Shown here: one piece after another, positions 25,023 to 56,832 of the stretch
Layout of the letters: the number at the start of each line of letters is the position of its first letter
Numbering within the stretch: the stretch's first letter is position 1
Assembly: GCA_049279335.1 (NCBI GenBank)
Contig: JBAPNX010000024.1
Coordinates: forward strand, 375,211 to 439,210
DNA from: Candidatus Dormiibacterota bacterium
Lineage (GTDB): Bacteria; Chloroflexota; Dormibacteria; Aeolococcales; Bog-877
Length of the DNA: 64,000 nt
Direction: 5' to 3'
Position numbers and translations under genes: made by a program
Notes under the pieces: generated by a model
The model's input: the letters and a program-made list of their open reading frames with translations, nothing else
Database searches by the model: none
Told to the model about the DNA's origin: nothing

Positions 25023-25034
25023 TATCATGTGGCG

Positions 25035-37432: not shown

Positions 37433-38187
37433 GCCAGGACGGGTTCTCCCGGGTCGCCCTGCCGACCGTCGAGAGCCCGGAACCGGATGCGGTGAAGGGG
37501 ATGTTCGCCAGCCTGGCGCAGCGCTACGACCTGCTCAACTCTGTGCTCAGCCAGGGCCAGGACCGGCGCTGGCGCCGCCGGGCCGCCCAGCTCACCAGGG
37601 CCCAACCGGGGGACGCGGTGCTGGACGTCTGCACCGGTACGGGAGCCCTGGCAGCCCTCCTGCGCCGTCGGGTCGGCGGGAGCGGCCAGGTGGTGGGGAT
37701 CGACTTGACCGAGGCCATGTTGGAGGTGGCCAGGGCCAGGGTTCCCGAGGTCAGGTTCGTGGCGGCGGACGCCTGCGCCCTGCCCTTCCCCGATCAGTCC
37801 TTCGACGCCACCACCATGGCGTTCGGGCTGCGCAACATAGGCGACCGGCAGAAGGCGCTGGACGAGCTGGCCCGGGTCCTGCGCCCGGGAGGCCGGGCTG
37901 TGATTCTCGAGTTCAGCCAGGTCCACCCGCTGCTGCGGCCCGCCTACCACTGGTACAGCCGGCGGCTGATCCCGGTGGTCGCGAGGGCGGTCATGGGCCG
38001 GGACAGCGCCTATCGCTATCTCACCGAGTCGATCGCCGCCTTTGCGTCGCCGGAGCTAGTCGCCTCCTGGCTCAAGCAGGCTGGCTTCAGCCCGGTTCAC
38101 CACTACCGGATGACTGCTGGGGTGGTGGCCATCCACGTGGGCCGGCGCCAGGGGACGCTTCTCAGACGGGAGGCTGCAGGAGGCTGA
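37429..38187 (+). CDS. menG: Demethylmenaquinone / ubiquinone C-methyltransferase (UbiE/MenG family)
   Basis: MFASLAQRYDLLNSVLSQGQDRRWRR, SAM-binding LDVCTGTGAL, and LRPGGRAVILEFS. Proposed GTG start overlapping the MTAP stop (GTGA). ATG alternative near 37501. Confidence 0.8.
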   Translation: MSQDGFSRVALPTVESPEPDAVKGMFASLAQRYDLLNSVLSQGQDRRWRRRAAQLTRAQPGDAVLDVCTGTGALAALLRRRVGGSGQVVGIDLTEAMLEVARARVPEVRFVAADACALPFPDQSFDATTMAFGLRNIGDRQKALDELARVLRPGGRAVILEFSQVHPLLRPAYHWYSRRLIPVVARAVMGRDSAYRYLTESIAAFASPELVASWLKQAGFSPVHHYRMTAGVVAIHVGRRQGTLLRREAAGG

Positions 38188-38626
38188 GGGTCTCCGCCAC
38201 CAGCGCGGGACGCTCGGAGCCCTCCAGTTCGTAACTGATCTCGTAGGTGACCAGGAAGCCCGAAGGGGGGCGCTCACGCACCTCAAGCACCTTGGCTCGC
38301 AGCCTGACCCGGCTTCCGGCTGTCACCGGCGCGAGGAAGCGCAGTCGGTTGAGTCCGTAATTGATGCTGGTGGCGTGACGGCGAACGTGGTTGATCTGGT
38401 CCAGCAGCATCGGAGTCAGGGAGAGCGTGAGGTACCCGTGGGCGATGGTGTTGTGGAACTCGCTTTGGGCCGCCCTCTCGGGGTCGACATGGATCCACTG
38501 GTGGTCGCCGGTGACCTCGGCGAAGGCGTCGACCTTGGCCTGGTCGAGCTCCACCCATTCGCTCGGCCCCAGGGTCGAGCCGACCGCTTTTCGTAGATCA
38601 TCGATCGTCTCGGGCGGCACTGCCAT
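38162..38626 (-). CDS. MaoC-like (R)-specific enoyl-CoA hydratase / hotdog-fold dehydratase
   Basis: C-terminal 155 aa from MAVPPETIDD... with the hotdog core (FAEVTGDHQWIHVDPERAA...HGYLTLSL). The upstream part of the listed ORF is low-complexity. Confidence 0.7.
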   Translation of the reverse strand: MAVPPETIDDLRKAVGSTLGPSEWVELDQAKVDAFAEVTGDHQWIHVDPERAAQSEFHNTIAHGYLTLSLTPMLLDQINHVRRHATSINYGLNRLRFLAPVTAGSRVRLRAKVLEVRERPPSGFLVTYEISYELEGSERPALVAETLSLLQPPV

Positions 38627-38683
38627 CGCTTCTTGGGTAGGGTACAGTGAGCGCCAGGTCGGTAGTCCGGGGGGACCGGGCCG

Positions 38684-40381
38684 ATGGAATCCGGGAGCAG
38701 AGAAGTCCGCGTGATTCGCACCTTGGTGGTAGCGGGGGGCCGGCAGGCGGAGGACCTGGCTCCGTGGCTGGAATACATGGGCCGGACTGGGACCATCACC
38801 GCCCAGGTGACAGCCGACGTCTCCGCGCTTAGCCAACCCGAGGGCTATGACGTGATCGTGGCCCATCCTCCTCAGGGCGAGCTCTTCCCGGCGGCCGAGA
38901 CCGGCCTCTGCAATTTCGTGCGTCGGGGCGGGGGCTTCCTGGGTCTGCATTGCACCAACGCCACCTGGGCCTCGGCCCGCCAGTACCTAGACCTGGTCGG
39001 GGGCGGCCCGGAGGGTCGGCTGCCCAGCAGCGAGATCGTGAGCCAGGTCAGCGATGGCGGCCACGACATCACCCGCCGTCTGGCCGGCTCACTGACGCTG
39101 CACGACTCCTGCTACACCCAGCCTCAGGCGCCGCCCGATTGCCGGGTCTTGCTCGACACCACCTGGCAGGCCAAACGACTTCCAGTCGCCTACGTCAGGG
39201 AGCCGGGCGCGGGCCGTGTCTTCTACTGGGGGATGGGGGAGGCGGCGTCGACCTTCCGCGAGCCCGAAGTTCAGGAGCTTCTCTACCGGGGGCTGCGCTA
39301 CCTGGCCGGCGAGGTGGAGCGAGACTATGTGGGCCTGGGCATGCTCGGCTTCGGCGCCATCGGCGGCGACCACGTCGCCTCCATTGCGGCTGTGGCGGGG
39401 CTGAGCCTGCGGGCGGTGGCCGACCCCAACCCCACCCGGGTCGAGGCGGCCAGTCAGCTGGTCCCAGACGTGGCCGTCGCCTCCAGCCTGGCTGACCTGG
39501 TGAAGACGCCCGGTGTCGAGGTCGTGATCATCTCCACTCCCCCCAACACCCACGCCGCTCTGGCCGAGCAGGCGCTTCAAGCCGGCAAGCACGTGGTGCT
39601 GGAGAAGCCCTTCTGCCTCACCCTCGCCGACGCGGACCGGCTGGTGGACTTGGCCAAGGAGACCGACAGGACCCTCACCGTCTACCAGAACCGCCGCTGG
39701 GACCCTGACTTCCTGGCGCTGAGGGCGGCAATTGAGCGGGGTGACCTGGGCTCGATCTTTCACCTGGAAGCCTTCGTCGGCGGCTACGACCATCCCTGCC
39801 ACTACTGGCACTCGCATTCGCCGGTCAGCGGCGGGGTGATCTTCGACTGGGGGGCTCACTACCTGGACTGGATCCTGCAGCTGATCCCGGGACCGGTGGT
39901 TCAGATCGCGGCCCGCAACCAGAAGCTGGTCTGGCAGGACGTCACCAACGACGACCACTTCGAGGTCCGGATGACCTTTGCCAATGGGGCCGAGGCTACC
40001 TTTATCCACTCCGACATCGCCGCCGCTCGCAAGCCCAAGTGGTATGTGCTGGGCACGCGGGGGGCTGCGGTAGGCCATTGGCGCGAGGGCAGGCTGACCA
40101 GCCGCGGGCCGAGTGGGCAGCTGGTGGAGGAGCTGCTTTCGGTAACCGATCTACCCTGCGAGCTCCACATCCTCACCCCCAGCGGCTCCGGGGAGAGCCA
40201 CGACCAGCTGCTCTCGCTGCCGCCCGCGCCGCCCCAGGCCTTCTACCGGAATTTGGCCGGCCATCTCCTGGCCGGGGAGCCGCTGGCGGTGACCCCGGAG
40301 TCGGCGCGTCGCAACGTCGCACTGATGGAGGCCGCGCTGCGTGCGGCCGAGCTGGGGCAGCCGCTCAACCAGCGAGTGTGA
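38684..40381 (+). CDS. Fusion protein: ThuA-like (class I glutamine amidotransferase-like) N-domain plus Gfo/Idh/MocA oxidoreductase (ThuB-like) C-domain
   Basis: Residues about 1-215 resemble ThuA (VVAGGRQ...FVRRGGGFLGLHC...). Residues about 225-565 are a Gfo/Idh/MocA Rossmann plus C-terminal domain (LGMLGFGAIGGDHVAS..., EKPFCLT..., dimerisation region). Confidence 0.7.
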   Translation: MESGSREVRVIRTLVVAGGRQAEDLAPWLEYMGRTGTITAQVTADVSALSQPEGYDVIVAHPPQGELFPAAETGLCNFVRRGGGFLGLHCTNATWASARQYLDLVGGGPEGRLPSSEIVSQVSDGGHDITRRLAGSLTLHDSCYTQPQAPPDCRVLLDTTWQAKRLPVAYVREPGAGRVFYWGMGEAASTFREPEVQELLYRGLRYLAGEVERDYVGLGMLGFGAIGGDHVASIAAVAGLSLRAVADPNPTRVEAASQLVPDVAVASSLADLVKTPGVEVVIISTPPNTHAALAEQALQAGKHVVLEKPFCLTLADADRLVDLAKETDRTLTVYQNRRWDPDFLALRAAIERGDLGSIFHLEAFVGGYDHPCHYWHSHSPVSGGVIFDWGAHYLDWILQLIPGPVVQIAARNQKLVWQDVTNDDHFEVRMTFANGAEATFIHSDIAAARKPKWYVLGTRGAAVGHWREGRLTSRGPSGQLVEELLSVTDLPCELHILTPSGSGESHDQLLSLPPAPPQAFYRNLAGHLLAGEPLAVTPESARRNVALMEAALRAAELGQPLNQRV

Positions 40382-41397
40382 TCGCAGCGCCGCTCCGGTG
40401 GGGGGTGCTGGGCGCGGCTGACATCGCCAACAAGGCGGTCATCCCCGCGATTCTCGCGGCCGGTGGGCAGATGGTGGCGCTGGCCAGCAGAGACCTCGAG
40501 CGGGGCGGGGAGATAGCCGCCAAGTTCGCCATCCCCCAGCTTTGCCCAAGCTATGAGGCGCTGCTGGAGGCCGACCTGGACGCGGTCTACATCCCGCTTC
40601 CCAACTCGCTCCACCGGCCCTGGACCCTGCGGGCGGTGGCTGCCGGCAAGCACGTCCTCTGCGAGAAGCCGATGGCCCTCACCGCGGCGGAGGCTAGGGA
40701 GATGGGGGAGGCTGCTGCCGACCACGGCGTGGTGCTGGCGGAGGCGGTCATGTATCGCTATCACCCACGCTGGCACGTGATACGGGAACTCGTCGGCCAG
40801 GGAAGCCTAGGCGGCCTGCGCCACATCCAGGGAGCCTTCACCTTTCCTTTGCGGCAAGAGTCGGATATCCGCTGGGACCCCGCCCTGGGAGGCGGCGCGC
40901 TCTACGACGTCGGGTCTTATCTGGTCAATGCCAGCCGTTGGCTGGTAGGCGAGCCGACCAGGGTGCTGACGCGAGCCCAGCTAAGGCATGGTGTTGTCAG
41001 CGATGGCTCCATGCTGCTGGAGTTCAAGACCCCTCAAGGCGCTGTCTCGGCTGAGCTCGCCTACAGCTTCGAGTCCGCCGAGCACCAGCGTCTGGAGTTG
41101 ATCGGAACCGAGGCCTCCCTGACCATCCCCAAACCCTTCACCGCCTGGCATGAGGAGGCGATCCCGCTCTGGCTTAGCCCGGCGCCTGGGGGCACATCTC
41201 GACGCGTCCCCACCCCCGCGGCGGATCCCTACCGGGAGATGGTTTCGGCATTCACGGTCCGGGTTGGTGGGGGAGCGCTGCTGCCAACCGAGGCGGATGA
41301 CGCGGAGCTGGGCCTGCGGGTTCTCGACGCTGGTCACCGTAGCCACGTCAGTGGCAAGTGGGAGACCCCCTGGGCAGCGGCTAGCCCTATCCCCTGA
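40378..41397 (+). CDS. Gfo/Idh/MocA family oxidoreductase
   Basis: LRWGVLGAADIANKAVIPAI (Rossmann), EKPMALT, and the conserved C-terminal alpha/beta domain. GTG start overlapping the upstream stop (GTGA). Confidence 0.8.
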   Translation: MIAAPLRWGVLGAADIANKAVIPAILAAGGQMVALASRDLERGGEIAAKFAIPQLCPSYEALLEADLDAVYIPLPNSLHRPWTLRAVAAGKHVLCEKPMALTAAEAREMGEAAADHGVVLAEAVMYRYHPRWHVIRELVGQGSLGGLRHIQGAFTFPLRQESDIRWDPALGGGALYDVGSYLVNASRWLVGEPTRVLTRAQLRHGVVSDGSMLLEFKTPQGAVSAELAYSFESAEHQRLELIGTEASLTIPKPFTAWHEEAIPLWLSPAPGGTSRRVPTPAADPYREMVSAFTVRVGGGALLPTEADDAELGLRVLDAGHRSHVSGKWETPWAAASPIP

Positions 41398-42781
41398 TCT
41401 CGATCGCGCAGCTGGGAGCTGAGAGCTTCAGGTCCAGGAGACCGGTGGTGGATCTGTAGGGTGCGGCCATCTGGGCACATTGACTAAGGATGGTCGGCAT
41501 GCCCACCGAGGAAGGCCAGGAGACCAGCATCCGGCTGCCCACCGGCGCGGCCTGGACATCGGCCGAAAGGGTCGAGGAAGCCACCTGATAGTCGAGGTGA
41601 CTCAGTTTCCCGGGTGCCGCGCGCACGAAGGGCTGGGCGAGGACGTCGAGCCAAGCATGGTCGACTGGCCCGCTGCCGCGCTCGACCCCCCAGTTGTCCG
41701 GATCATTCCACTCCCACCAGGCCCAGCCGGTGAGGAATCGATTGGAGAGGGAGATCTCGGCGCGGGCCCAGGAGGCGGCGATGGGCCGGGTGTGGTCGAT
41801 GCCGAGCTCGCCTGACCAGTACGCGGCGGGGAGCTGACCCGCCTCGGCCAGCCCTTGCTCGAGCTCGGACTCAAGCGGTTGCAGGTTGCCGTTGAACGGG
41901 GGCCCGAGGATGCTGCCGCTGTAGAGATGAGTGGAGTAGACGAGGTTCGGTGCCGCGAGCGGGCGGATGGCGGTGGGCAGGTCGGCGAAGAGGTCTCCCT
42001 CGACGATGAAGAGGTGGTTGGGATCAACTTTGGCCAGGGCGCTGATGCCGGCGGCGTAGAAGGGCCAGAGGATGTGGGTCTCAAAGATGGCCGGGGGGAC
42101 CGGGAAGGGATGGGGCTCGTTGTAGAGGTCGTAGCCAGCGACCGCGGAGTCGCCTCGAAAATCCGCCGCGACCTTGGCCCAAGCCTGCCAGTAGAGGCGC
42201 TGCCAGTTGGGATAGAGCCAGAAGTAGGCGAGCGCGGCGTTCACGGCGGGGGAGAGATGGCGTTGCCAGGCCGCGGTCAAGAAGGGTAGGTGCAGGTCGG
42301 GCACCCCTGGGATCGATAGCCAGGCGGGGGCGCCGCTGCCGCCGAAGCCGACTCCGAAGTCCTCGGTGTGCATGTCCAGTACCACGTAAAGGTGGTGGCT
42401 GGCGCAGCGGGCGACCACGGCTCTGATCCGGCGCAGGTAGCTCTGGCTGAACTGTCCCCGATGGGGCTCGAGCAGAGACCACGAGATCGGCAGCCGAACC
42501 ACGTCGAAGCCCTCCGACTCCATCAGAGATGCGTCTGCCGGAGTCATGGGAGGAGCGGCTGCCTGTCCTCCGATCTGGAGAAGGGTGTCGTCGTTGAAGC
42601 CGCGGAGGATGACCGTCCGGCCCTGGCTGTCGACGATCCGGCCCTGGCTGACGGAAAGCCAGGGCAGTGGGCCGGCGGCGGGCCGGGCCGTCTCGAATGT
42701 CACCGACAGGGCGGGCACCGGCAGGTAGACAACCGCGGCCAGCGCCAGCACCAGCCCAATCGCGCTGGGGAGTGACGACAT
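41387..42781 (-). CDS. Glycoside hydrolase family 5 (cellulase superfamily) secreted/anchored protein
   Basis: N-terminal hydrophobic anchor or signal. GH5 motifs including the NEP acid/base catalytic motif (LYNEPH) and a later catalytic Glu region (GELG). About 465 aa. Confidence 0.6.
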   Translation of the reverse strand: MSSLPSAIGLVLALAAVVYLPVPALSVTFETARPAAGPLPWLSVSQGRIVDSQGRTVILRGFNDDTLLQIGGQAAAPPMTPADASLMESEGFDVVRLPISWSLLEPHRGQFSQSYLRRIRAVVARCASHHLYVVLDMHTEDFGVGFGGSGAPAWLSIPGVPDLHLPFLTAAWQRHLSPAVNAALAYFWLYPNWQRLYWQAWAKVAADFRGDSAVAGYDLYNEPHPFPVPPAIFETHILWPFYAAGISALAKVDPNHLFIVEGDLFADLPTAIRPLAAPNLVYSTHLYSGSILGPPFNGNLQPLESELEQGLAEAGQLPAAYWSGELGIDHTRPIAASWARAEISLSNRFLTGWAWWEWNDPDNWGVERGSGPVDHAWLDVLAQPFVRAAPGKLSHLDYQVASSTLSADVQAAPVGSRMLVSWPSSVGMPTILSQCAQMAAPYRSTTGLLDLKLSAPSCAIEIRG

Positions 42782-42896
42782 CCCGCCCGCGCGCTGGTTG
42801 CGGGCGGACCTCAACGCTAGGCGCAGCACCTGGGGATTGTGTCGCACCGGGGGCGGCCTGCCTGGAGACCGCGGTCAGATGCGAAGAGGGGAAAGG

Positions 42897-43415
42897 CTAC
42901 TCGTTGCCGACCTTGGAGTTGGGAGTGGAACTGCCGAAGTTGATGAAGCCTTCGATTACTGCGCCGGTTTGGGCGTCCACCAGGACCGTGTCCAAGCGGA
43001 TGGCTCCTGGGGCCGGAGGATTGATCTCCTCCGCGGCGGCGGGGTTCAGGAAAACCACCCAGCAGAGCCTGCCTGGAGGTGAGATAGCCGAGCCCGGCGA
43101 CCCAACCGCGACTGCCAGCAGCACCTGGTCGACAAGGGCCCCGGACCGGCCCGCCGTGGCCGCGGACTCGGCCCGAGCCGCGCTGATGTCGGCCGGTCGG
43201 GTAGGCGTCTGCAGGGTGACCCCGCTCTGCTCCAGCAGGGTCTGGGTGCTGGGCAGGATGCCTAGGCCGTTGGCACTCTCCGGCGCGTGGGTGGCGGTCA
43301 AACTCAAGGCCGCCATCACACCCACTACCAGGGCGACGGCTATCGCTCGCAAGCGCCACCAGGCGCGTGGGCGGGGACCCGGATTGGTCCAGTGCACGCT
43401 GGAATCATCGGACAC
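42897..43415 (-). CDS. Hypothetical membrane-anchored protein
   Basis: Single N-terminal TM helix (LRAIAVALVVGVMAALSL) followed by an extracytoplasmic domain. No recognisable motif. Confidence 0.35.
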   Translation of the reverse strand: MSDDSSVHWTNPGPRPRAWWRLRAIAVALVVGVMAALSLTATHAPESANGLGILPSTQTLLEQSGVTLQTPTRPADISAARAESAATAGRSGALVDQVLLAVAVGSPGSAISPPGRLCWVVFLNPAAAEEINPPAPGAIRLDTVLVDAQTGAVIEGFINFGSSTPNSKVGNE

Positions 43416-43539
43416 GAGAGATCTATGGTGGAATCGGGAGATGGCGCCGGGTTTGGCCGGCGCCCGGCTGCGGTAGGGTAGCTCTAGCGGTGCCTCGACG
43501 TGGCATCAGGCTGCAGTGCAACGGAGGTTCGGAGACGTA

Positions 43540-45465
43540 ATGGCCAAGACCGTCGGAATCGACCTGGGAACGACCAACTCCGTGGTCGCCGTCATGGAGG
43601 GCGGCGAGCCCGTTGTCATACCCAACGCTGAGGGCGGTCGCACGACCCCGTCGGTGGTGGCCTTTACCAAAGGTGGGGAGCGGCTGGTCGGGCAGTTGGC
43701 CCGGCGGCAGGCTGCTGTCAACCCCGAGAACACCGTCTACTCGATCAAGCGATTCATGGGTCGCCTCTATAACGAGGTGGCGAGCGAGCGCAAAATCGTC
43801 CCCTACAAGGTGGTGGCCGGCAAGGATGGTCGCGCTGAGGTGGACATCGCCGCCACCAAGTACACCCCCGAGCAGATCTCGGCCATGATCCTGCAGAAGC
43901 TCAAGGTCGACGCTGAGGCCTACCTGGGGGAGAAGGTCACCGACGCGGTGATCACTGTGCCTGCCTATTTCAACGACGCCCAGCGGCAGGCCACCAAGAA
44001 CGCCGGCCAGATCGCCGGGCTAAACGTGCTCCGGATCATCAACGAGCCCACCGCTGCATCTCTGGCGTACGGGCTGGACCGCAAGGAGTCCGAGAAGATC
44101 CTTGTCTTCGACCTCGGCGGAGGCACCTTCGACGTCTCCATCCTCGAGGTCGGCGAGGGGGTATTCGAGGTCAAGTCGACCAACGGCGACACCCACCTGG
44201 GTGGAGACGACTACGACCGTCGCATCGTTGACTGGCTGGCCGAGGAGTTCAAGAAGGAGCAGGGCATCGACCTGAAGACGGATCGTCAGGCCCTGCAGCG
44301 CCTGACCGAGGCCGCCGAGAAGGCCAAGATCGAGCTCTCTCAGCTTCAGGAAACCCAGATCAACCTGCCCTTCGTCACCGCCGATCAGAACGGTCCCAAG
44401 CACCTTGACACTCGGCTGTCGCGGGCCAAATTCGAGCAGTTGACGGCTGATCTCACCGACCGCTGCAAGGCGCCCTTCGAGAACGCTCTCAAGGACGCTG
44501 GCATGAAGACCGGTGACCTGGACGAGGTCATCCTGGTTGGAGGCTCCACCCGGATGCCGGTGATCCAGGAGTTGGTTCAGAAGCTCAGCGGCAAGGAGCC
44601 CCACCGGGGGGTCAACCCCGACGAGGTCGTCGCCGTAGGCGCCGCCATCCAGGCCGGCGTGCTCAAGGGTGAAGTCAAGGACGTGCTCCTGCTGGACGTG
44701 ACCCCGCTGTCCTTGGGCATCATGACCGAGGGGGAGGTCAACACTCGGCTGATCGAGCGCAACACCACCATTCCCAGCAGCAAGACCCAGGTCTTCTCCA
44801 CCGCCGCCGACAACCAGTCCTCGGTGGAGATCGTGGTCCTCCAGGGCGAGCGACCCCTGGCCAAGGACAACCGGACGCTGGGGCGCTTCATGCTGGACGG
44901 GATTCCCCCGGCCCCGCGCGGCGTGCCCCAGGTCGAGGTGACCTTCGACATTGACGCCAACGGCATCCTCAACGTGACCGCCAAGGACCTGGGCACCGGA
45001 CGCGAGCAGAAGGTCACCATCACCGGGTCCACCACGCTCCAGAAGGAGGAGGTGGAGAGGATGGTCAAGGAGGCGGAAGCCCACGCCGACGAGGACCGCC
45101 AGCGAGCCGAGGACATCTCCCGGCGCAACCAGGCCGACACCCTGGTCTACAGCGCCGAGAAGACGCTGCGTGAGCACGGCGACAAGATCTCGGACGAGCT
45201 CCGAGAGGAGATCACCCAGAAGACCGACGCCCTGAAGGAGGCGGTGGCCGCCCAGAACTCCCAGGACATAGAGAGCCGGCAGAAGGAGCTCTCCGATGCG
45301 CTCCAGAAGGTGGGCGAGGCCATCTACCAGCAGGCCAACCCATCGACACCTGGTTCCGACGGTGAGCACGGTGGGGGAGAGGACATTCCCCCAGCCGCAG
45401 GAGCGCCGGATGCCGCCGCGGGCAGCGACGGCGATGTCGTCGACGCCGAGTTCAAGGAAGTGTGA
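43540..45465 (+). CDS. dnaK: Molecular chaperone DnaK (Hsp70)
   Basis: [18 protein letters not shown]..., [22 protein letters not shown]. Full-length Hsp70. RBS GGAGG upstream of ATG. Confidence 0.95.
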
Positions 45466-46424
45466 ATCGACCCAAGCTTGATCTCGCGATCGGGCTTGGG
45501 CTCACGGTCTGCGGATACGCCGCCCTAGTGGGTTGGGCTAGGCGGGCCGCCGTTTCCGACCCGCCGATGGCGGAAATGGAGTCGGCGCTGAACCGACGCC
45601 TCGACCAGGCAGGGCTGGCCGCAAGCCACCGCTACGTTCACACCCCGGCTGGGCGGGTCCACCTGTTGGTCGGGGGCACGGGCGAGAGCACGCTGCTCTT
45701 CGTTCCGGGGCTGGGCGCCTCGGCAGGAGACTTCCCCGAGCTGCTGGCCCAGCTGGCCCGCCGCCACCGGGTGGTGGCGGTCGACCTTCCCGGCAGCGGG
45801 CTCAGCGATCCGGTCGCCTTCAAGGGGCATCCGGGTCGAGCTTGGAACCAAGTGATCTCTGCCGTGACCGAGCAGCTGGGCATCGGTGAGTTCGACCTGG
45901 TGGGCCACTCGCTGGGCGGCCTGGCGGTGGGAGGATTCGCCATCAGCCACCCGGAGAGGCCGAGACGGCTGGTTCTGCTCAGCCCCTTCGGACTCAGTCG
46001 TCGCATCCCACTCCACTGGAACCTGGCCCTGGTGCCGGGATCCATGGATCTGCTGGCTTTCTCGAGAAGGCTGGCCTTGGCGCGCAGCGCCGGAAGTGAG
46101 TCCGCCAGGGGCGACGATCGCTACTTAGAGCTGGTGGGAACCAGATTCGGGTCCGGTTCCGACTTCAACTTGGTGGCCCGCATGTTGCGGCTGCTGCGTC
46201 TTCGGGCCGAGTCGGAGCTGGCTCCCGCCCTCGGGCTCCTCTCGGGCCGCGCGCTCGTGATCTGGGGCAGCGAGGACGGCCAGCTCCCGCTCCCAGACGC
46301 GGCCCGCCAACTCAGCTACTACCCGGGCATCCAGCTGGAGATCTTGCCGGGCGCCGGTCACCTATTTCCCGCTACCCAACCCGAGTCAACTGCCCGCCTG
46401 ATCACGGCCTTCCTCGCCGGCTGA
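45462..46424 (+). CDS. Alpha/beta-fold hydrolase
   Basis: GHSLGG nucleophile elbow and HG oxyanion motif (LLFVPGLG). GTG start overlaps the dnaK stop (GTGA). Confidence 0.75.
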
Positions 46425-46501
46425 GGCTCGACTTCACTGTTTCCCCGCTACCACGCGCGGGTAAAAACACTGCATGGGAAAAATGGATCGGGGGGTGGCG
46501 G

Positions 46502-49186
46502 GTGCAGCTTGACCGACTGACACAGCGCAGTCGTGAGGCTCTAGAGCAGTCCCAGGAACTGGCAACTGAGCTCCAGCACCCGGAGGTGGAGCCGGAGCAT
46601 CTCCTCCTGGCGCTCGTCGACCAGACCGACGGCGTGGTCTCGCCGCTGCTGCGCCAGGTGGAGGTGGACCCCGGTCAGGTTCGCGCCCGTCTGCTCTCAG
46701 ATCTCGAGAGTCGGCCCAAGCAGCAGGGAGCCAGTCCCCGGCTCTCCCGAGCGCTGGAGGATGTCCTCAACCAGGCCTTCGAGTTCATGGGCAAGCTGGG
46801 TGATGAGTACTGCAGCTCCGAGCACTTGCTAGTGGCGCTGGCCAGTCGCAGAGTCGGCCCGGCGGCGGGGATCCTGGCCCAGTTGGGGGCCACCCCACAG
46901 CGCCTGACCTCGGCCCTGGAGGCCCTCCGCCAGGGACAAAAGGTCACCGACCCTAATCCGGAGAGCAAGTTCCAGGTGCTGGAGCGCTATACCCGCGACC
47001 TCACCCAGCAGGCCCGGGAGGGCAAGCTCGATCCGGTGATCGGGCGCGACGAAGAGATCCGCCGGACCATGCAAGTCCTCTCCCGCCGGACCAAGAACAA
47101 CCCCGTCCTCATCGGGGAGCCCGGGGTGGGCAAGACTGCCATCGTCGAGGGACTGGCGCAACGGATCTCCAGCGGCGACGTGCCTGAGACCCTCAAGGAG
47201 AAGCAGGTGGTGGCCTTGGACCTGGGCGCCCTGATCGCGGGCACCAAGTTCCGGGGAGAGTTCGAGGACCGGCTCAAGGCGCTTCTGAAGGAGGTGACCG
47301 GCTCCGACGGCCGGATCATCATGTTCATCGACGAGCTCCACACCCTGATCGGGGCAGGAGCGGCCGAGGGCGCCATGGACGCGGGCAATATGCTCAAGCC
47401 CGCGCTGGCTCGGGGCGAGCTGAGGGCGATCGGAGCCACCACCTTCGACGAGTACCGCAGGTACATCGAGCGCGACGCCGCCCTGGAGCGCCGCTTCCAA
47501 CCGGTCCAGGTGGGTGAGCCGTCGGTGGAGGACACCATCAGCATTCTGAGAGGCCTTAAAGAGCGCTATGAGGTCCATCACGGAGTGCGGATCAAGGATT
47601 CGGCTCTGGTGGCGGCGGCGGTTCTCTCCAGCCGATACATATCGGGACGTTTCTTGCCGGACAAGGCGATCGACCTTGTCGATGAGGCCGCGTCTCGGCT
47701 TCGGATGGAGATCGATTCCATGCCGGTGGAGCTGGACGCGGTGGAACGGCAGGTACGCCAGCTGGAGATCGAGCGCGAGGCGCTGCGCAAGGAGACCGAC
47801 CGTGCCTCGGCGGACCGACTGCAGGCACTGGAGCGCGAGCTGGCTGAGCTCCAGGAAAGCGCTGTGGGGCTGCGCCAGCGCTGGGAGCGGGAGAAGGCTG
47901 TCATCGGTCAGATCCGCGCCACCAAGCAGGAGCTTGAGCGCACCGCCTTCGAAGCCGAGCGGGCCGAGCGGCTGGCCGACTTCGCCAAGGCAGCCGAGCT
48001 TCGCTACGGCAAGCTGAACGAGCTGCGCAAGCGGCTGGAGCAGGAGCAACAGCAGCTGACCCAAGACCAGGGCGGCAGCCCTTTGCTACAGGAGGAGGTT
48101 GGCGAGGAGGACATCGCCGAGGTGGTGGCGCGCTGGACCGGGATTCCGGTGCAGCGCATGCTCGAGGGCGAGATGCACAAGCTGCTGCAGATGGAGGACC
48201 GCCTGCACCAGCGGGTTGTCGGCCAAGACGAAGCCATCGCGGCGGTTGCCAGCTCAGTACGTCTGGCTCGCGCAGGCCTCAACGATCCCCGTCGTCCCTT
48301 GGGTTCGTTCATCTTCCTGGGGCCCACCGGAGTTGGCAAGACCGAGGTGGCCCGAGCCCTAGCTGAGTTCCTCTTCGACAGCGAGGACGCCATGATCCGG
48401 CTGGACATGAGTGAGTACATGGAGAAGCACTCGGTGGCTCGCCTGGTGGGTGCTCCCCCCGGCTACGTCGGCTACGACGAGGGTGGCCAGCTCACCGAGG
48501 CGGTGCGGCGGCGCCCCTACGCGGTGCTTTTGCTGGACGAGATCGAGAAAGCCCATCCCGACATCTTCAACATCCTGCTGCAGCTACTCGACGACGGTCG
48601 CCTGACCGATGGCAAGGGCCGCACGGTGGACTTCCGGAACTGCGTCGTGATCATGACCAGCAACCTGGGCAGCCCCGTGATCGCGGCACTTCCCGACCAT
48701 GCCAGCCATGAGCAGGAGGAGGCCGCCAAGTCGGAGGTGCTGGCCGAGCTGCGCCAGCATTTCCGCCCCGAGTTCCTCAATCGGGTCGACGACGTCATCC
48801 TCTTCCACCGACTCGACCAGGCCCAGTTGGAGCGGATCGTGGAGCTCCAGTTGCGCCAGCTGGAGGAGCGTCTCGCCCACCGCCGACTGCAGCTGCAGGT
48901 TATGCCTGCTGCCAGGGCTTGGCTCGCAGAGCAGGGCTACGATCCCGTCTACGGGGCCCGCCCGCTACGACGGGTGCTGCAACGCCAACTTGGCGACCGC
49001 ATCGCCACCGCCGTCCTCCAGGGTGATTTTGGCGAGGGTGACACCATCCTGGTAGATGCGGGGAGTGACGGCCTCGTCCTCAGCCGGGGCGGGGGCTCTT
49101 TTCCGGGACCGGAGGAGCCCGAAGAAGCGCAGGGCGGCAAGACCCCGGTCGAGGTTGAGCCGGTGAGAGGCGCTCAAGCGGGCTGA
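46502..49186 (+). CDS. clpB: ATP-dependent chaperone ClpB
   Basis: N-domain, two AAA+ modules ([16 protein letters not shown]) with a long coiled-coil middle domain between them. 894 aa. Confidence 0.95.
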
Positions 49187-49326: not shown

Positions 49327-49398
49327 GGCCGACGTAGCTCAGTGGTAGAGCAGCGGTTTCGTAAACCGCTTGTCCGGGGTTCAAATCCCCGCGTCGGC
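49327..49398 (+). tRNA. tRNA-Thr (anticodon CGU)
   Basis: Cloverleaf: acceptor GCCGACG/CGTCGGC, D-arm GCTC-AGTGGTA-GAGC, anticodon arm GCGGT-TTCGTAA-ACCGC (anticodon CGT), T-arm CGGGG-TTCAAAT-CCCCG. CC encoded, A not encoded. Confidence 0.85.
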
Positions 49399-49729
49399 TC
49401 CGTTTTCATGTGCTAGTTCGGGTGACACGTCGCCAAAGGGCTTCGGCTGATGGGTCGCACAACTTCGGCTGAGGTGTCATCACTTCCTCAGCCTGGTGTT
49501 CCCGCTCGATCATTCAGACTTCGAATTCCTCGATTCTTAGCCGAGTGATGGCGGCGCTGGCGCGCCACCCGTCGCCTAACTTGCGCACCGTCTGACGCCG
49601 GACCTGTCGAAGTGGCCACCGGATCCCAAACACCGCGGCTAGTTACTGTCGGTACTGCCGCCACCCAGGCGGTTTCGCAGCTTGCGCGCCCAACATGATC
49701 AGTCGAGCCAGGAGGACCACTCATGTCCT

Positions 49730-50344
49730 CTAGTGCTTGGGCTCCAGCCTCCACGTGAACCATGGCACCACTTGGGGGACGTGCTGACGGTATCGGGCGT
49801 AGTCATCCGGGAACGTCGCCGCCATCAGGCGTTCCTCAGAACGGATCTTGGCCCCGAAGACCACGACCGCAAACGGAAGGATGAGAATCCAGGACCCAAC
49901 CCCGGCCAGTAGCACCGATCCCAGGAGCATGCCAAGCACTCCCGTGTAGATGGGGTTGCGGGTGATGCCGTACGGCCCGTCAGTTCGGAGTTGATGATTC
50001 TCTCTGAGTACCGTTTCGATGCTCCACATGGTGCCTAACGCGGCGCGAGCCCAAAGCGTGAAGGCCGTAGACAGGAGGAGGATGGCCAGTCCAAAACCGG
50101 TGACCCAGAGGGAGTCCACCTGAAGGTGGTCCCAATCGGCAGCGGAGACCACATGGGCGACCACGACCAAAACAGCCACCGACGCGACGATGATCCCGAC
50201 GAAAGACCTGGGCATCATGTTCCACCTGGCGCGCCTCGGCCCTTTCGCCGCGTTGTAGATCGCGCCAACCACCCAGACCGAAGCAAACGCCACCCAGCAG
50301 ACCGCGATCCCGATCGTGGCGACCAATTGCTGAGATTGCGGCAC
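49730..50344 (-). CDS. Isoprenylcysteine carboxyl methyltransferase (ICMT/PEMT) family membrane protein
   Basis: Multi-TM with C-terminal ...RTDGPYGITRNPIYTG...EERLMAATFPDDYARYRQHVP, the ICMT family signature. Confidence 0.7.
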   Translation of the reverse strand: MPQSQQLVATIGIAVCWVAFASVWVVGAIYNAAKGPRRARWNMMPRSFVGIIVASVAVLVVVAHVVSAADWDHLQVDSLWVTGFGLAILLLSTAFTLWARAALGTMWSIETVLRENHQLRTDGPYGITRNPIYTGVLGMLLGSVLLAGVGSWILILPFAVVVFGAKIRSEERLMAATFPDDYARYRQHVPQVVPWFTWRLEPKH

Positions 50345-50495
50345 CGTGCCACTCTAGTCCAACATCGCCGGGATTGCCCGCGATCGCCTGCTGTCCTGAG
50401 CCGGTCTCCTAACTGAATCGCCGTCTTCTGATCTCGAGCGATGGCAGCGGATGGAACTCGGGTGCAGCGAGGCTGGACTAGGGGTTGCAGTACGG

Positions 50496-50951
50496 TCAGC
50501 TTTTGCCACGAAGGTCAGCGATGACTCGGAAACGTTCCAGTACCACCAGAGTTGCGTCGTCCACGGTGAAGGCGGGGTTGCCCAGCGCACGTCGCATCTT
50601 TGGACTATGCCAAAAGCGCACGTGCGCCTTCCTCCACTGGGAGATGGTGGTGAACCCCTCGCCCTCGGCGACCGCGTGGGCCACGTCAACCTGTACCAAG
50701 GGTGCGACCCGCACGCTGGTCGTCTCGATGATGGCAACGGGCCGCTCATCGGAGTCGACAACCACCGAGAGGTCGCCGACGGTGGGCAACGGCTCGCGGC
50801 CATGCTCGTGCTCCTCGACCAGGCCGGTGGTCGAGGTCTTGGACCCATCAAGGATGGCGGCGACTAGTTGGTCGCGGAAGCGGCCGGGAAAGGCGAACTC
50901 AGCCTTGGGCAGCGCGCCGGGGTCCATCGGCACTGCGGAGTTGCTCGACAC
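50496..50951 (-). CDS. ASCH domain protein
   Basis: AILDGSKTSTTG (compare the ASCH GxKxxExR motif region) and overall beta-barrel pattern. 151 aa. Alternative start at MDPG (50927). Confidence 0.6.
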   Translation of the reverse strand: MSSNSAVPMDPGALPKAEFAFPGRFRDQLVAAILDGSKTSTTGLVEEHEHGREPLPTVGDLSVVVDSDERPVAIIETTSVRVAPLVQVDVAHAVAEGEGFTTISQWRKAHVRFWHSPKMRRALGNPAFTVDDATLVVLERFRVIADLRGKS

Positions 50952-51593
50952 AGACCGATCCTATAGCGCTCGCGAAGGCCCAGCGACTGGGGTCGAAGTC
51001 GCGCCATCAGCTCGTGGGGACTACATTGAGGCCGCAATCGAAGGTGACCTAGCGACTGAGGACGAACATGTCGAGTAAGTCGGCGGTGCTTGTGGTGGTG
51101 GGGACGGCGGCAGCGATGGCCATCATGGATGCGCTGTTTCATATTCATCACGGCTGTTGGGACACGTCGGGGCGAGTCCACCATGATCGAAGCGCTGGCA
51201 CCTTGGCCAGCGAGCCCAGAGCTCGTATGGCTTGAGCTCGACGGCACGGGCAGATCAGGGGCAAGGCGCGAGGGGTGCCTCCCCGGCCGCTTGGGCAGGG
51301 GGCACCGATGTCATTCCATGATCTGCCCCATGCCGTCGCGAGCTAATGATCGTGTCGCGGTCGACCCAGGTACCGTCTCGGCTTGACGGGCGGCTCCGTC
51401 ATCAGCCTCGCCACATCCACGATGTCGTGGTCGCGCTGAGTCTCAAGCGCCGAGCAACGGATCAGCGGTCCGGTTGCTGGCGCACCCGAGAGATCACCGT
51501 TGGGCTCCTCTTGGACTACCCGGTGCAGTTTGCGGGCCCTGGAGGTGAACCACCTGAGACCTAGCCACGGGCCAAACACCACCGAAATGGCCG

Positions 51594-52331
51594 TTGTTGG
51601 GGCCAGTGGCTGGCGTCGCTGACGTAGGCTCCGGCCCATCCAGGGGGACGGACGTCCGATTTCCTGCCACGCTTGGCCGAGGAGTGGTCGTCGGCGCGAT
51701 CTGCTGGGCCCTATGTCTGCTCTTCTTCATCGATCAGGGGATCGCTGAAGCAGCCTCCAAGGCCCCCTACAGCCCCATCACCAATCTCATCAGTGACCTC
51801 GGCGTCACCAGGTGTGGTCCTCTGGCCCTGGGCAGTTATCACAACAGCATCTGTTCTCCGCTCCATGCGCTCATCGACTGGACGTTCGTTGTTGTCGGGG
51901 TGCTGCAGGCGCTCGGAGCCATCCTTCTCTTCCCTGCGTGGCCGCGGCAGAGCCGTGAATGGATAAACGGCATGATCGGCCTCGCACTTATCCCGATGGC
52001 CGGCGCCTGCCTGACGATCGTAGGTTTGGCGCCGGAGAACGTCTCACCGGACGCGCACGCCACCGCCGCCAAGATCGGGATCTACCTCTTGAATGCGGCG
52101 GTCCTTCAGATTGGCATCAGCCTAGTGCGCGTCAGCCGAGTTGCTGGGGGCCTGAGCCTTGTTGCCGCGATCACCGGCTGGGTCGGCACCGGGCTCCTGT
52201 TCGGCGCTGCTACGGCTGTCCCCCTTGGTCTCTCAGAGAGGTTGGCGGACTTTCCCGGGTCAGGGGTACTGGTAGCGCTCGGGGTGTTCGTACTCGCAAG
52301 GGCGCTTCACGCCCGGCTCCGAACGTCGTGA
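51594..52331 (+). CDS. DUF998-like integral membrane protein
   Basis: 6 hydrophobic helices with conserved CGPLALG and NSICSPLHAL segments as in DUF998 proteins. Start uncertain. Confidence 0.5.
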   Translation: MLGPVAGVADVGSGPSRGTDVRFPATLGRGVVVGAICWALCLLFFIDQGIAEAASKAPYSPITNLISDLGVTRCGPLALGSYHNSICSPLHALIDWTFVVVGVLQALGAILLFPAWPRQSREWINGMIGLALIPMAGACLTIVGLAPENVSPDAHATAAKIGIYLLNAAVLQIGISLVRVSRVAGGLSLVAAITGWVGTGLLFGAATAVPLGLSERLADFPGSGVLVALGVFVLARALHARLRTS

Positions 52332-52588
52332 CGTACCGACCTCAAACAGGGTGTACCAGGAACTCCAACCGGTCAAGTCGTCCATCAGCAGATGAAGCAT
52401 GGCAAGAGTCAAGCAGCAAAACAGGAAAGCGCGACCGGAGCCACCGAGGGTGCGCCCCAGGCCTTGGGTGTGTCCTGGGCTCTCCCAGCTCCCCTCGAGC
52501 GACAACCTTGGCCCTATCTACACGAATTTGACCAGCGCGCACACAAAATCCCAACGTCGGGGATGCCACGGAAACCCAGGGAGGCTGG

Positions 52589-52843
52589 ATGGGAACGCCT
52601 GAGACCGGCCCGCCCCTTGAGCCACTCTCCCGGGAAGACTTGGTGGCGACGGCGGCTGCTGGGGAGGAGCTCGGTCCGGAACACACTGCCGTGCTTGTCG
52701 ACTCCTTCCTCTCCAAGGTGGAGAAGGAGATTGATGCCAGGGTGGACGCCCGGCTGGCCAAAGGCCGGAAGGCGGTCGTGTCAGACCACTCCCGGGGGGT
52801 TGGGGTCGTCCTTCCATTAGGGTCGATAGTGCTGGCAATACCC
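52589..52843 (+). CDS. Hypothetical protein; likely continues in another frame (possible frameshift near the G-run at about 52795-52800)
   Basis: N-terminal 85 aa look protein-like (LSREDLVATAAAGEELGPEHTAVLVDSFLSKVEKEIDARVDARL...). Downstream in-frame sequence is Arg/Gly junk. A neighbouring frame encodes a TM-like segment (ITGAIAGTTSGDQALIGLAVAWAGIAAVNVAHVLG). Confidence 0.3.
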
Positions 52844-53170
52844 CATCACCGGAGCCATCGCCGGAACTACGTCCGGAGACCAAGCATTAATCGGGCTGGC
52901 GGTCGCATGGGCGGGAATCGCAGCCGTCAACGTGGCCCACGTGCTAGGCAGACGCACGGTGAGCGGGGCCCGCATACCTGCCAGGCGCCCAGCCGGCCAC
53001 GGGCCGGGGAGCCGCCACCCGACCGCGGTGGTGGCGGGCCAGATCTGGGAAGTGGGTCGAGGCACCTCAGTCCGCCAGCGGACAGACACCAGACCCAATA
53101 TGGCGCACAGTGGTGCTGACGTCTGGATAGGTCGACCGGGACGCCAACGCATCGGCGTGCGTCAATCGGG

Positions 53171-53602
53171 TTGACTCCGGGAGACCCAGACATGATCGCA
53201 CCAGAAGTCAGCGAACAAGAACGCACGGCGACCCGCGTCGATCCTGCCGGTAACGGCGAGCAGACCACAACCCGCACCACTGCCACCGTGACGCCGATGG
53301 GGTCCAGGCTGCAGAGCGCGGTATGGCTTGCGGTCGGGATCGTAGACGTGATCCTGGCGCTGGATTTTGTCTTCAAACTCCTGGCCGCAGCGAACGTTGG
53401 GTTCGTCGGGTTCATCACCAGCGTCGCTGGATCCCTGAGCGCCCCGTTCAGGGGAGTGATGGCTTCGTCGGTACCAAGCGGACACTACTTTTACTGGCCC
53501 GACGTGGTGGCGGTGGTGGTGTATGTGATCGCTGCTTGGATCGTAGTCAGCCTGATCCGGATCATGGCCGGCCGCCGCTCTCCTCAGAAGAACGGGATCT
53601 GA
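53171..53602 (+). CDS. YggT-family membrane protein
   Basis: AVWLAVGIVDVILALDFVFKLLAA...SAPFRGV...YVIAAWIVVSLI resembles the YGGT repeat. Start likely internal (MIAPEV or MGSRLQ). Confidence 0.45.
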   Translation: MTPGDPDMIAPEVSEQERTATRVDPAGNGEQTTTRTTATVTPMGSRLQSAVWLAVGIVDVILALDFVFKLLAAANVGFVGFITSVAGSLSAPFRGVMASSVPSGHYFYWPDVVAVVVYVIAAWIVVSLIRIMAGRRSPQKNGI

Positions 53603-53694
53603 TGCGACAGGGAACCACTCTGGCAGCGGAACAGCACGCCAGCGTATGGGCGTGGGCGTGCGCCAAACAGGTTGAGTCTTTGGAGGAACTGGCA

Positions 53695-53850
53695 TGATCG
53701 TACTGGGCGTCATTCTGCTAATCGCCGGGTTCGTATTGGCGATTCCAATACTCTGGACAATCGGCGTGATCCTAGCCCTGGTCGGGCTCGCTCTCTGGGT
53801 CCTAGGCAGCATGGGTCACAAAGTCGGACGCCGTGCCCACTACTACTGAT
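53695..53850 (+). CDS. Small (51 aa) two-helix membrane protein, not in the supplied ORF track
   Basis: ATG preceded by GGAGGA at the ideal 6-nt spacing. Encodes MIVLGVILLIAGFVLAIPILWTIGVILALVGLALWVLGSMGHKVGRRAHYY. Codon usage matches the genome (GC3-rich). Confidence 0.5.
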
Positions 53851-53999
53851 AGGCGGTGCCTCGGCCAGACGACGGTGTCAGTGGGCGGTGGGTCACTTAC
53901 AGCGACTCGACTGGGCAAGCGGACACTCCCCTCCACCGCGTCATCGAGAGTTCCAGCTCAGCAGCAGACGACGGCTGAGCTGGAGCGGGGCGTCCTCCG

Positions 54000-54584
54000 G
54001 TGTTGAACGCGACGCGGACCAGCACGCAGGAACTCGCCGTGGACACGGGTTCCGATGCCGTCATCGCGGCTGGCGACGGCCCTGGGACGGGACTGGCAGC
54101 CGATGCGTCCAGCTACGTGGTGGATCTGTGGATCGACTTGGTTAGTCAGGCTGCGAGCAGTGAGTCGTCGCCGCGACTTTTGAGTGTCACCGGGCTGAGT
54201 CGCCAGCAGTTCCGGGCACTCAACTGCCTCCAGAGCGAACCGCTTTCGATCCCCGGTCTTGCCCACTGCCTGGGCATCAGCACAGCTGCAGCCACGGCGA
54301 CTGCGGACTGCCTCGTTGCCGCCGGAGCTGCAGAACGCTTTCGGGATACTCTCGACGGCCGGAAGGTCCGGGTGGTAGCCACGGTCGCAGGGATTCAGAT
54401 GGCGAGCGACTACCGGGCCACCCAAGTGGCGCTGCTGGAGACGCTGCTGGGCAATCTGGTGCCCGCGAGGCGGGCGGTCCTCGCCCTGGCCATGCAAGAA
54501 ATAGCGAAGGCGATGGAATGGACCTCAACAGCGTCGCTTGACCGGACGGTCAGTCCCCATCCAGAGCCCGGGATGTTGAACTAG
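54000..54584 (+). CDS. MarR family transcriptional regulator
   Basis: Winged-HTH region LSRQQFRALNCLQSEPLSIPGLAHCLGISTAAATATADCLVAAGAAER...DGRKVRVV. GTG start. Confidence 0.65.
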   Translation: MLNATRTSTQELAVDTGSDAVIAAGDGPGTGLAADASSYVVDLWIDLVSQAASSESSPRLLSVTGLSRQQFRALNCLQSEPLSIPGLAHCLGISTAAATATADCLVAAGAAERFRDTLDGRKVRVVATVAGIQMASDYRATQVALLETLLGNLVPARRAVLALAMQEIAKAMEWTSTASLDRTVSPHPEPGMLN

Positions 54585-55080
54585 GCTGCGTCGCCCCTCG
54601 ATCGGCCCGAGCCCTCCGCTGGTCGACCCGAACCCGTCCTCTGGATAGATTCGGCGCCGTGACCCCAGCACAGTGACCTTCCAAGCAACGCTTCAGACCT
54701 GGCATACCTTCTACGCGACCACGGGCCAAGCGGCCGCCGGTCTGGTCGGGCTCCTTTTCGTGGGGCCGCGACGATCACCGCTCCGCCTCGGCAGCCAACT
54801 GCGCGAGCAGCCGGGAGCCAACTGTCGTGATGGGCTAGGCCGGGGGTGGTCGTATCAGCCCTGCTGACGTCGATGGCTATGGCTCCGGCCAAACGGATGG
54901 CTCGAGTGCTACCTTGGGCATGAGACCGGCTCGAATGGACATCCGTGCAGGCGCTCGCCGAGATTCCCCGCTTTTCTGTGGAGAGGGGAAGGGATAGAAC
55001 TCTCTCGATTGCGCCAAGGAATTGACGAGGAAATCGAGTCACCTCTTTTTTCTGGTCGTGCTGTGCTCCACAGGCGGGGC

Positions 55081-55644: not shown

Positions 55645-55759
55645 ATGGTTCGGGGCTAGGCAAGAAGATCCCTCGGCGCCGTCCCCAACCGCGGCCTTGC
55701 ACAGGCCTTCGCCCGTGGCTAGTGTGGCTTGATGGTGTCCCGAGTGAGCCAGGTCTGAG

Positions 55760-56764: not shown

Positions 56765-56832
56765 CTGCGGCACCGGCGCTACCGCCAGCGCCGCCTCGAG
56801 CCACCGAGGTGGGGGCTTGCCACCCCGAGGTA

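Follow-up and report, generated by a model that had tools for sequence, protein, structure and literature searches.

A dnaK-hydrolase-clpB locus of Candidatus Dormibacterota with a predicted SigB/SigF-type promoter shared by dnaK and clpB

Several arrangements of bacterial dnaK have been described that invite comparison with the locus reported here. In the HspR/HAIR system of Actinomycetota and Deinococcus, represented among the loci that we read by those of Coriobacteriia (L044, L051, and L074), dnaK opens a dnaK-grpE-dnaJ-hspR operon and is co-regulated with clpB, which lies close by. In the HrcA/CIRCE system, the order is hrcA-grpE-dnaK-dnaJ, as in the Chloroflexota loci L004, L015, L020, and L078. 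Thermus thermophilus has the operon dnaK-grpE-dnaJ-dafA-clpB. Dormibacterota is an uncultured soil lineage related to Chloroflexota, for which we know of no cultured model, and a literature search returned nothing on Dormibacterota chaperone genes. Here, we describe a locus from this lineage, contained in a 64,000-nucleotide stretch of DNA that was analysed at its full length (the window), in which dnaK is followed by a gene for an alpha/beta-fold serine hydrolase and then by clpB (Table 1). The locus resembles the HspR/HAIR arrangement in that the genes for DnaK and ClpB are close together and apparently co-regulated, but it has no grpE, dnaJ, hspR, or HAIR, it carries the hydrolase gene in the place of the co-chaperones, and it is predicted to depend on a sigma-factor promoter instead of a repressor. 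Like the HrcA/CIRCE loci, it holds chaperone genes from the broader group related to Chloroflexota, but no hrcA lies beside dnaK and there is no CIRCE. Unlike in the Thermus operon, the intervening gene encodes a lineage-specific hydrolase and not the co-chaperones and a small assembly factor.

From the evidence set out below, we consider it probable, though well short of certain, that this locus encodes a canonical chaperone pair whose co-chaperone genes are dispersed, with a hydrolase coupled to dnaK and probable control by a sigma factor.

Table 1. Features of the dnaK-hydrolase-clpB locus, in window coordinates
Feature	Position	Strand	Description
172-aa protein gene	42897..43415	-	divergent from dnaK; N-terminal hydrophobic anchor, conserved C-terminus GVGSE
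Palindrome GGCGCCGG-GTTTGG-CCGGCGCC	43443..43464		perfect 8+8 bp inverted repeat, lineage-specific
dnaK promoter (predicted)	43451..43481	+	-35 GTTTGG 43451-43456, 14-nt spacer, CGGTAG 43471-43476, GGTAG 43477-43481
Leader hairpin (predicted)	43489..43507	+	near predicted dnaK 5′ end; position conserved, sequence not
dnaK	43540..45465	+	canonical Hsp70, 641 aa, ATG start
Alpha/beta-fold serine hydrolase gene	45462..46424	+	320 aa, GTG start, predicted N-terminal transmembrane helix
clpB promoter (predicted)	46439..46464	+	GTTTCC-N14-GGGTAA; exact fit to the SigB/SigF-type consensus; 38 nt upstream of start codon
clpB	46502..49186	+	Hsp100 disaggregase, 894 aa, GTG start
tRNA-Thr (CGT)	49328..49401	+	conserved cluster ends here; DNA beyond varies among relatives

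Source organism and identity of the chaperones

An earlier, sequence-only reading of this DNA had measured the locus against the actinobacterial dnaK-grpE-dnaJ-hspR operon. The exact proteins are annotated in the database as those of a Candidatus Dormiibacterota metagenome-assembled genome (DnaK MFZ0995474.1, hydrolase MFZ0995475.1, ClpB MFZ0995476.1), and a copy of the locus is held in ENA (ERZ25039540 contig_9111, 1.05 Mb). The name Candidatus Dormibacterota also appears on the 90%-identity cluster of DnaK, and the named DnaK relatives at 82-97% identity are Dormibacterota or Dormibacteria, the exceptions being a single Acidoferrales label and a single Verrucomicrobiae label. The window DNA is from a Candidatus Dormibacterota genome and not from an actinobacterium, and the actinobacterial operon was therefore the wrong expectation. 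To our knowledge, HAIR is not expected outside lineages that use HspR. What had been described is nevertheless correct: the map of open reading frames (ORFs) and the Pfam and NCBIfam searches bear out dnaK, the hydrolase gene, and clpB in a row without grpE, dnaJ, hspR, or hrcA, and the sequence confirms the GTGA junction of dnaK and the hydrolase gene. The description was accurate but started from the wrong taxonomic premise, and most of the original finding dissolves once the organism is identified.

DnaK and ClpB of this locus are the lineage's canonical chaperones, both scoring above equivalog cut-offs. DnaK matches the Pfam HSP70 model with 874 bits, covering residues 5-597, and reaches 1011.7 bits against the NCBIfam equivalog NF001413 (cut-off 648) and 986.7 bits against TIGR02350 (cut-off 822.55). 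The longest dnaK ORF begins with a GTG at 43516, which is upstream of the conserved N-terminus, and the ATG at 43540 was taken as the start. ClpB reaches 1346.7 bits against TIGR03346 (cut-off 1232.1), and Clp_N, AAA, AAA_lid_9, AAA_2, and ClpB_D2-small were each found in it with Pfam. The start codon of clpB is GTG here and ATG at the same position in the relative L083.

The DnaK cycle needs a J-protein and normally GrpE as well. We compared the main ORFs of the window with Pfam and read precomputed Pfam lists for 10 kb of flanking DNA on each side, and in these 83 kb around the locus no GrpE, DnaJ, HrcA, or MerR/HspR domain was found among the scanned ORFs or in the flank lists. Nor was grpE, dnaJ, hrcA, or hspR found in any Dormibacterota locus that we read. 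As a baseline, we used 80 dnaK loci from other phyla, none of them from Dormibacterota, whose DnaK proteins are 60-68% identical to that of the window among the matches listed. In this set, dnaJ adjoins dnaK in about 60 loci, and the genes close to it include grpE in 33, hrcA in 18, and one that is HspR-like in 36; about 15 loci lack both dnaJ and grpE in the vicinity. A dnaK gene without adjacent co-chaperones is a minority but ordinary arrangement. A clpB gene directly 3′ of dnaK occurs in two of the 80, one from Bacteroidota (L024) and one from Deltaproteobacteria (L076), in which the genes stand side by side as here but have no gene between them.

Because DnaK needs a J-protein and normally GrpE, we infer that grpE and dnaJ lie elsewhere in the genome, and that the chaperone genes of this lineage are dispersed and the pair here is not a second set. 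Two points weigh against this reading, namely that neither gene has been located and that a second copy of dnaK may be present in this genome. In the alternative, DnaK and ClpB would be a second, specialised, paralogous set, and a housekeeping dnaK-grpE-dnaJ would lie elsewhere under HspR or HrcA. The lack of co-chaperones within 83 kb would suit that arrangement, and so would the outcome of the DnaK search, which returned two tiers of identity, one at 82-97% (the clade that carries the hydrolase) and one at 76-80%, in which DnaK proteins at 76-78% identity are also labelled Dormibacterota and have other neighbours. We read the lower tier in two loci (L178 and L180, DnaK 77% identical), where a solitary dnaK lies beside gatCAB and a gene for a PCMT-type methyltransferase, and where no hydrolase gene, clpB, grpE, or dnaJ is found near dnaK (9890-11930). 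An ECF sigma factor gene is located 1.7 kb upstream of dnaK in L180.

A second set is nonetheless improbable in our judgement. The DnaK of the window is full length and passes the equivalog cut-offs, and an identity of 77% is high for ancient Hsp70 paralogues. The lower-tier dnaK is itself solitary, with no grpE or dnaJ, and it has the same type of promoter. In addition, the NCBI accession blocks of the two tiers do not overlap (in a small sample), which fits an orthologue in other Dormibacterota lineages and not a paralogue within one genome. The sequence-only reading had left the choice between a second, differently regulated set and dispersed genes. Dispersal holds, with the arrangement conserved across Dormibacterota and no co-chaperone in the 83 kb, and a difference in regulation is a fair reading, with neither HAIR/HspR nor CIRCE/HrcA present. 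For the second set we find no support: DnaK is of equivalog grade, synteny extends to each lineage that we read, and the DNA covered here showed no further copy.

Operators and promoters upstream of dnaK and clpB

At up to three mismatches, the window contains no match to HAIR (CTTGAGT-N7-ACTCAAG) and none to CIRCE (TTAGCACTC-N9-GAGTGCTAA), which extends to the whole window the absence already noted upstream of dnaK. Neither operator was found near dnaK, clpB, or hsp20 in 11 related loci, and relaxing the limit for CIRCE to five mismatches brought up none near these chaperone genes in the window or in the Dormibacterota loci. The scan is able to detect both operators, since it finds HAIR in eight and CIRCE in seven of the 80 unrelated dnaK loci. 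Control of this locus is evidently not of the HAIR/HspR or CIRCE/HrcA kind. A reading of GGTAGGGTAG as a CtsR-type direct repeat was dropped, as no CtsR box was found.

Upstream of dnaK, we aligned the six lineages of the hydrolase clade (the window, L083, L087, L173, L088, and L090) and found that GTTTGG, a 14-nt spacer, and CGGTAG-GGTAG are near-invariant. The solitary dnaK genes of L178 and L180 have GTTTAG-N14-[G/T]GCGGTAT in this place, and eight lineages thus share a spacer of 14 nt. Another register for dnaK, GTTT-N21-GGGTAG, was rejected; its spacing is wrong for SigB, and N14 to CGGTAG is the register conserved in the eight lineages.

The conserved GTTTGG box is also the loop of the GC-rich palindrome listed in Table 1, which had been put forward as the only symmetric element upstream of dnaK and as the possible target of a cognate regulator. 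Its position was confirmed exactly. A perfect 8+8 bp repeat that lies in a divergent promoter region and overlaps the -35 box could be the operator of an unknown repressor of dnaK, of the divergent gene, or of both, and the hairpin folds a little more stably than shuffled sequence does (z = -1.66). The arms decay in the five relatives, however, where 5, 4, 2, 2, and 4 of the 8 positions pair, while the loop, which is the promoter -35 box, and the boxes downstream of it are invariant. The window has 31 inverted repeats with 8-bp arms and a loop of 3-10 nt, compared to about 15 in random sequence, and the chance of one falling in the 124-bp spacer is about 0.06, which is marginally unusual. We regard an operator at this site as highly improbable, and the comparison of relatives indicates that the palindrome is incidental. 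Palindromes in GC-rich spacers should be compared with relatives before they are called operators.

The clpB gene has a predicted promoter of its own. All six lineages carry G(T/G)TTNN-N14/15-GGGTA(A/T) upstream of clpB, and the site in the window is its only match, on either strand, to G[GT]TT-N16/17-GGGTA[AT]. This promoter is kept in L088 and L090, where opposite-strand genes part clpB from dnaK, and it is thus independent. When 284 kb of Dormibacterota DNA were searched on both strands with a pattern covering both genes, G[GT]TTNN-N14/15-[GC]GGTA[ATG], 13 distinct sites were found, every one of them upstream of dnaK or clpB; the same pattern has 32 matches in 1.5 Mb from other phyla, none within 400 nt upstream of dnaK. 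Other genes of the window have -10 boxes of the TAGGAT/TAGCAT type, so GTTTNN-N14-[C/G]GGTA is not the general promoter type here.

The sequences of these boxes and their spacing match those of promoters used by SigB (Bacillus, Listeria) and SigF (Mycobacterium). The SigB consensus is GTTTAA-N14-GGGTAT, for which 14 nt is the optimal spacing (PMC9847131), and the mycobacterial SigF consensus is GTTT-N15/16-GGGTA (PMC4694148). Against this consensus, the clpB promoter (GTTT-N16-GGGTA) has no mismatch and the dnaK promoter (GTTT-N16-CGGTA) has a single one, in the -10 box. As both promoters are of one SigB/SigF-matching type, dnaK (with the hydrolase gene) and clpB are probably co-controlled, and probably co-induced, by a SigB/SigF-like alternative sigma factor. 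The sequence-only reading, in which the palindrome was the sole symmetric element upstream of dnaK, had missed this conserved promoter of clpB as well as the hydrolase as a lineage-specific, putatively membrane-anchored partner of dnaK.

Several observations tell against sigma-factor control of this type. The -10 box of dnaK reads CGGTA and not GGGTA, and the count of 13 was made on the very sites that had served to derive the pattern. No gene for a SigB/SigF-type sigma factor, RsbW, or RsbV was seen in the 83 kb here or in about 200 kb of relatives. The hsp20 gene of L085 has no -35 box, so not every heat-shock gene carries the motif. In model organisms, dnaK and clpB do not, as far as we know, count among the core targets typical of the SigB and SigF regulons. 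Finally, in the hydrolase clade the sequence TAGGGT (43474-43479 in the window) overlaps the proposed -10 region and fits the TAGnnT boxes of other window genes, so a housekeeping promoter is possible.

In that case, dnaK would be read from TAGGGT with a weak -35 box, and any heat control would be post-transcriptional, through the leader hairpin or through partial masking of the ribosome-binding site GGAGG, in the manner of an RNA thermometer. The position of the hairpin close to the 5′ end is kept, with three pairs that show compensatory changes (RNAalifold, six leaders), and most lineages are predicted to form a 4-bp CUUC:GGAG pairing, which could hide the ribosome-binding site. This pairing is broken in two of the six lineages, however, and the whole dnaK leader of the window folds no more stably than shuffled sequence (z = +1.3). 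With weak covariation and no thermodynamic signal, an RNA thermometer or structured leader was kept only as a minor rival. The promoter region points the same way. In the two distant lineages, L178 and L180, the box is GCGGTATA or GCGGTATC, which excludes a TAnnnT reading of the -10, while GTTTAG-N14-CGGTAT is kept. The distance to GTTT is exactly 14 nt in eight lineages, and clpB has the clean GGGTA form. Housekeeping transcription with post-transcriptional heat control therefore appears unlikely to us, and a shared SigB/SigF-type promoter is the reading that we carry forward.

The hydrolase coupled to dnaK

The hydrolase gene follows dnaK in all six lineages of the clade, with protein identities to that of the window of 76% (L083), 55% (L087), 56% (L173), 47% (L088), and 40% (L090). 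In the window, L083, L087, and L173, the order is a GH5 cellulase gene (-), a gene for a membrane protein of 160-178 aa (-), dnaK, the hydrolase gene, and clpB. L088 has two tandem hydrolase genes and then an opposite-strand acyltransferase gene ahead of clpB, and in L090 three unrelated genes follow the hydrolase gene and clpB lies 5.5 kb downstream. Thus, clpB comes directly after the hydrolase gene in the closer lineages and a few kb downstream in the deeper ones. The GTG start of the hydrolase gene overlaps the TGA stop of dnaK (GTGA within GAA-GTG-TGA), and the two are for this reason probably translationally coupled. The overlap is kept in three lineages, and in the others the gap is no more than about 50 nt if one mis-called start is corrected.

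A search with the hydrolase gave about 42 clusters at 40-100% identity, which are Dormibacterota where named, with one exception labelled Candidatus Nanopelagicaceae. The edge of the family is sharp, the E-values dropping from 4e-50 to 2e-21 on passing into generic hydrolases. No relative of the hydrolase occurs in the 80 dnaK loci of other phyla, and among the matches listed for metagenome contigs with a hydrolase alignment there is no family member, the best reaching 33% over most of the protein (41-42% on fragments of about 100 residues). On these comparisons, the family appears to be confined to Dormibacterota. Across 28 aligned family members, Ser150 (in GHSLGG), Asp272, and His300 never vary, and a hydrophobic segment at the N-terminus is conserved as KLGLAxGLGLxxLGYAALVGxARR. 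Conservation of this segment argues that the upstream start of the hydrolase is real and that the protein is membrane anchored.

Matches of the hydrolase to Pfam are to generic Abhydrolase models only. An AlphaFold2 model (mean pLDDT 89) shows two helices, 16-28 and 36-50, that precede the alpha/beta core. The top solved folds found with Foldseek are the Bacillus subtilis carboxylesterases CesB and CesA (4ccy, E 4e-18; 2r11; 4ccw), which have the same fold and Ser-Asp-His triad at an identity of about 20-23%. Pseudomonas aeruginosa PlaF (6i8w; E 4.4e-17, TM-score 0.69, 329 columns) likewise shares the fold and triad at about 20-23% identity, and here the likeness extends further, as the alignment and the model both show the PlaF-like architecture of a triad core preceded by an N-terminal transmembrane helix and then a juxtamembrane helix. 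PlaF, a phospholipase A1 that spans the membrane once, remodels the glycerophospholipids of the membrane (PMC9132575). None of these solved relatives is linked to a chaperone gene, unlike the hydrolase here. The nearest solved proteins by sequence are meta-cleavage-product hydrolases, and the hydrolase was considered as a C-C hydrolase of this group (HsaD, BphD, MhpC) and rejected, with 82 bits against a cut-off of 400 for HsaD (NF045632) and 51 against 462 for BphD (TIGR03343).

We read the protein as a putative membrane-anchored esterase or lipase-type serine hydrolase. By analogy with PlaF, it would most likely act at the membrane under stress, cleaving ester bonds in membrane lipids or in lipid-like substrates, and this is the weakest step of the interpretation. 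An identity of 22% to PlaF is too low for transfer of substrate specificity. Further points weigh against this interpretation: the hydrolase falls below every NCBIfam equivalog cut-off, its identity to solved structures reaches only 17-28%, there is a paralogous clade (P0080, P0084) with no linkage to dnaK, and adjacency by itself is no proof of a role in stress.

It could accordingly be asked whether the hydrolase gene is a passenger, functionally unconnected to the chaperones, that was fixed after dnaK early in the history of the lineage and has stayed there solely for its expression. Alpha/beta hydrolases are common and mobile enzymes, the paralogous clade stands at other positions, and the 80 loci of other phyla have no dnaK-linked hydrolase. 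The duplication of the hydrolase gene in L088 and the insertion of other genes ahead of clpB there would also fit a passenger. Yet the adjacency to dnaK persists down to 40% protein identity, though the downstream region has been rearranged, and the overlap of stop and start is kept in three lineages. Purifying selection on the triad and the transmembrane helix further shows that this is a functional protein. We hold a passenger to be a genuine possibility, if a somewhat doubtful one, and continue to favour the hydrolase as a partner of dnaK.

The paralogous clade was read at L085 (10001-10900) and L171 (10001-10999), where the proteins are 47-49% identical to the hydrolase, have GHSVGG for GHSLGG, and occupy unrelated positions. 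One copy shares a 2.5-Mb contig with a dnaK-linked copy, and in L085 some 7 kb separate the paralogue from an hsp20 gene and from a clpC-like gene.

Surroundings of the locus and a proposed stress regulon

The gene for the 172-aa protein adjoins dnaK in all six lineages of the hydrolase clade, and its product matches no Pfam or NCBIfam family. It belongs to an upstream neighbourhood (36536-43415) that is conserved in the clade and also encodes a PNP_UDP_1 phosphorylase, a methyltransferase, a MaoC dehydratase, a ThuA-GFO fusion oxidoreductase, a second GFO oxidoreductase, and the GH5 cellulase, the 172-aa GVGSE protein being the last. On the other side, the region after clpB (49328-58100) opens with tRNA-Thr(CGT) and continues with about 9 kb of lower G+C content (0.63-0.65 compared to 0.67-0.70), which hold small ORFs without a family match, a MarR regulator gene, DUF4232, and Imm_superinfect genes. 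Relatives have other genes past the tRNA-Thr, which in L173 include an integrase, DUF3631, and HTH_17. The region looks like a variable region or an integration hotspot; the tRNA-Thr was considered as an attachment site and rejected, as no tRNA-derived direct repeat was found.

Elsewhere in the window, an SOS-type mutagenesis cassette spans 19857-28403 and comprises a RecA-like imuA′ (19947-20765), imuB (20762-22003), and a dnaE2-like gene for Pol III alpha (24993-28403), with ftsH inserted at 22278-24278 and a DUF429 gene on the minus strand. One perfect palindrome resembling the LexA box (CGAAC-N4-GTTCG) precedes imuA′ by 77 nt (19857-19870), and another falls right at the beginning of dnaE2 (25009-25022). 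Two large overlapping genes (11656-18041), each encoding a UvrD-helicase domain and a PD-(D/E)XK nuclease domain, make up an AdnA/AdnB-like pair for resection of double-strand breaks. A multidomain signalling protein of 1184 aa (58159-61713) combines a zinc-ribbon, an adenylate/guanylate cyclase, an AAA_16 ATPase, and TPR, and a second, unrelated alpha/beta hydrolase gene (57143-58042) lies just upstream of it. Pyruvate phosphate dikinase is one ORF of 923 aa here (5622-8393) and two genes (434 and 486 aa) in the ENA copy (L176, 14319-17088), which may be a frameshift difference between assembly versions.

We propose a model in which dnaK, together with the hydrolase gene, and clpB would each be transcribed from its own promoter of the shared type GTTTNN-N14-[C/G]GGTA[T/A/G]. 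An alternative sigma factor would switch on both promoters together, by positive control and not by the derepression of HspR or HrcA systems. Translational coupling would then lead to the hydrolase being made whenever DnaK is made, and the hydrolase would act on membrane lipids or lipid-like esters at the membrane during stress. In its full form, DnaK and ClpB would constitute a small SigB/SigF-type stress regulon in Dormibacterota, with a PlaF-like lipid hydrolase co-translated with DnaK and protein repair coupled to lipid remodelling. We offer this full form tentatively and consider it rather unlikely to hold in every part. Two predictions seem worth keeping from the analysis, a PlaF-like membrane hydrolase coupled to dnaK throughout the phylum and a promoter of SigB/SigF type shared by dnaK and clpB.

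If the model is true, a general-stress sigma factor would take the place of the HspR and HrcA repressors that neighbouring phyla use. The two-promoter signature can be scanned for genome-wide, which may define the stress regulon of Dormibacterota and its sigma factor. The constant attachment of the hydrolase gene to dnaK suggests, moreover, that protein quality control and the membrane may be linked in this lineage.

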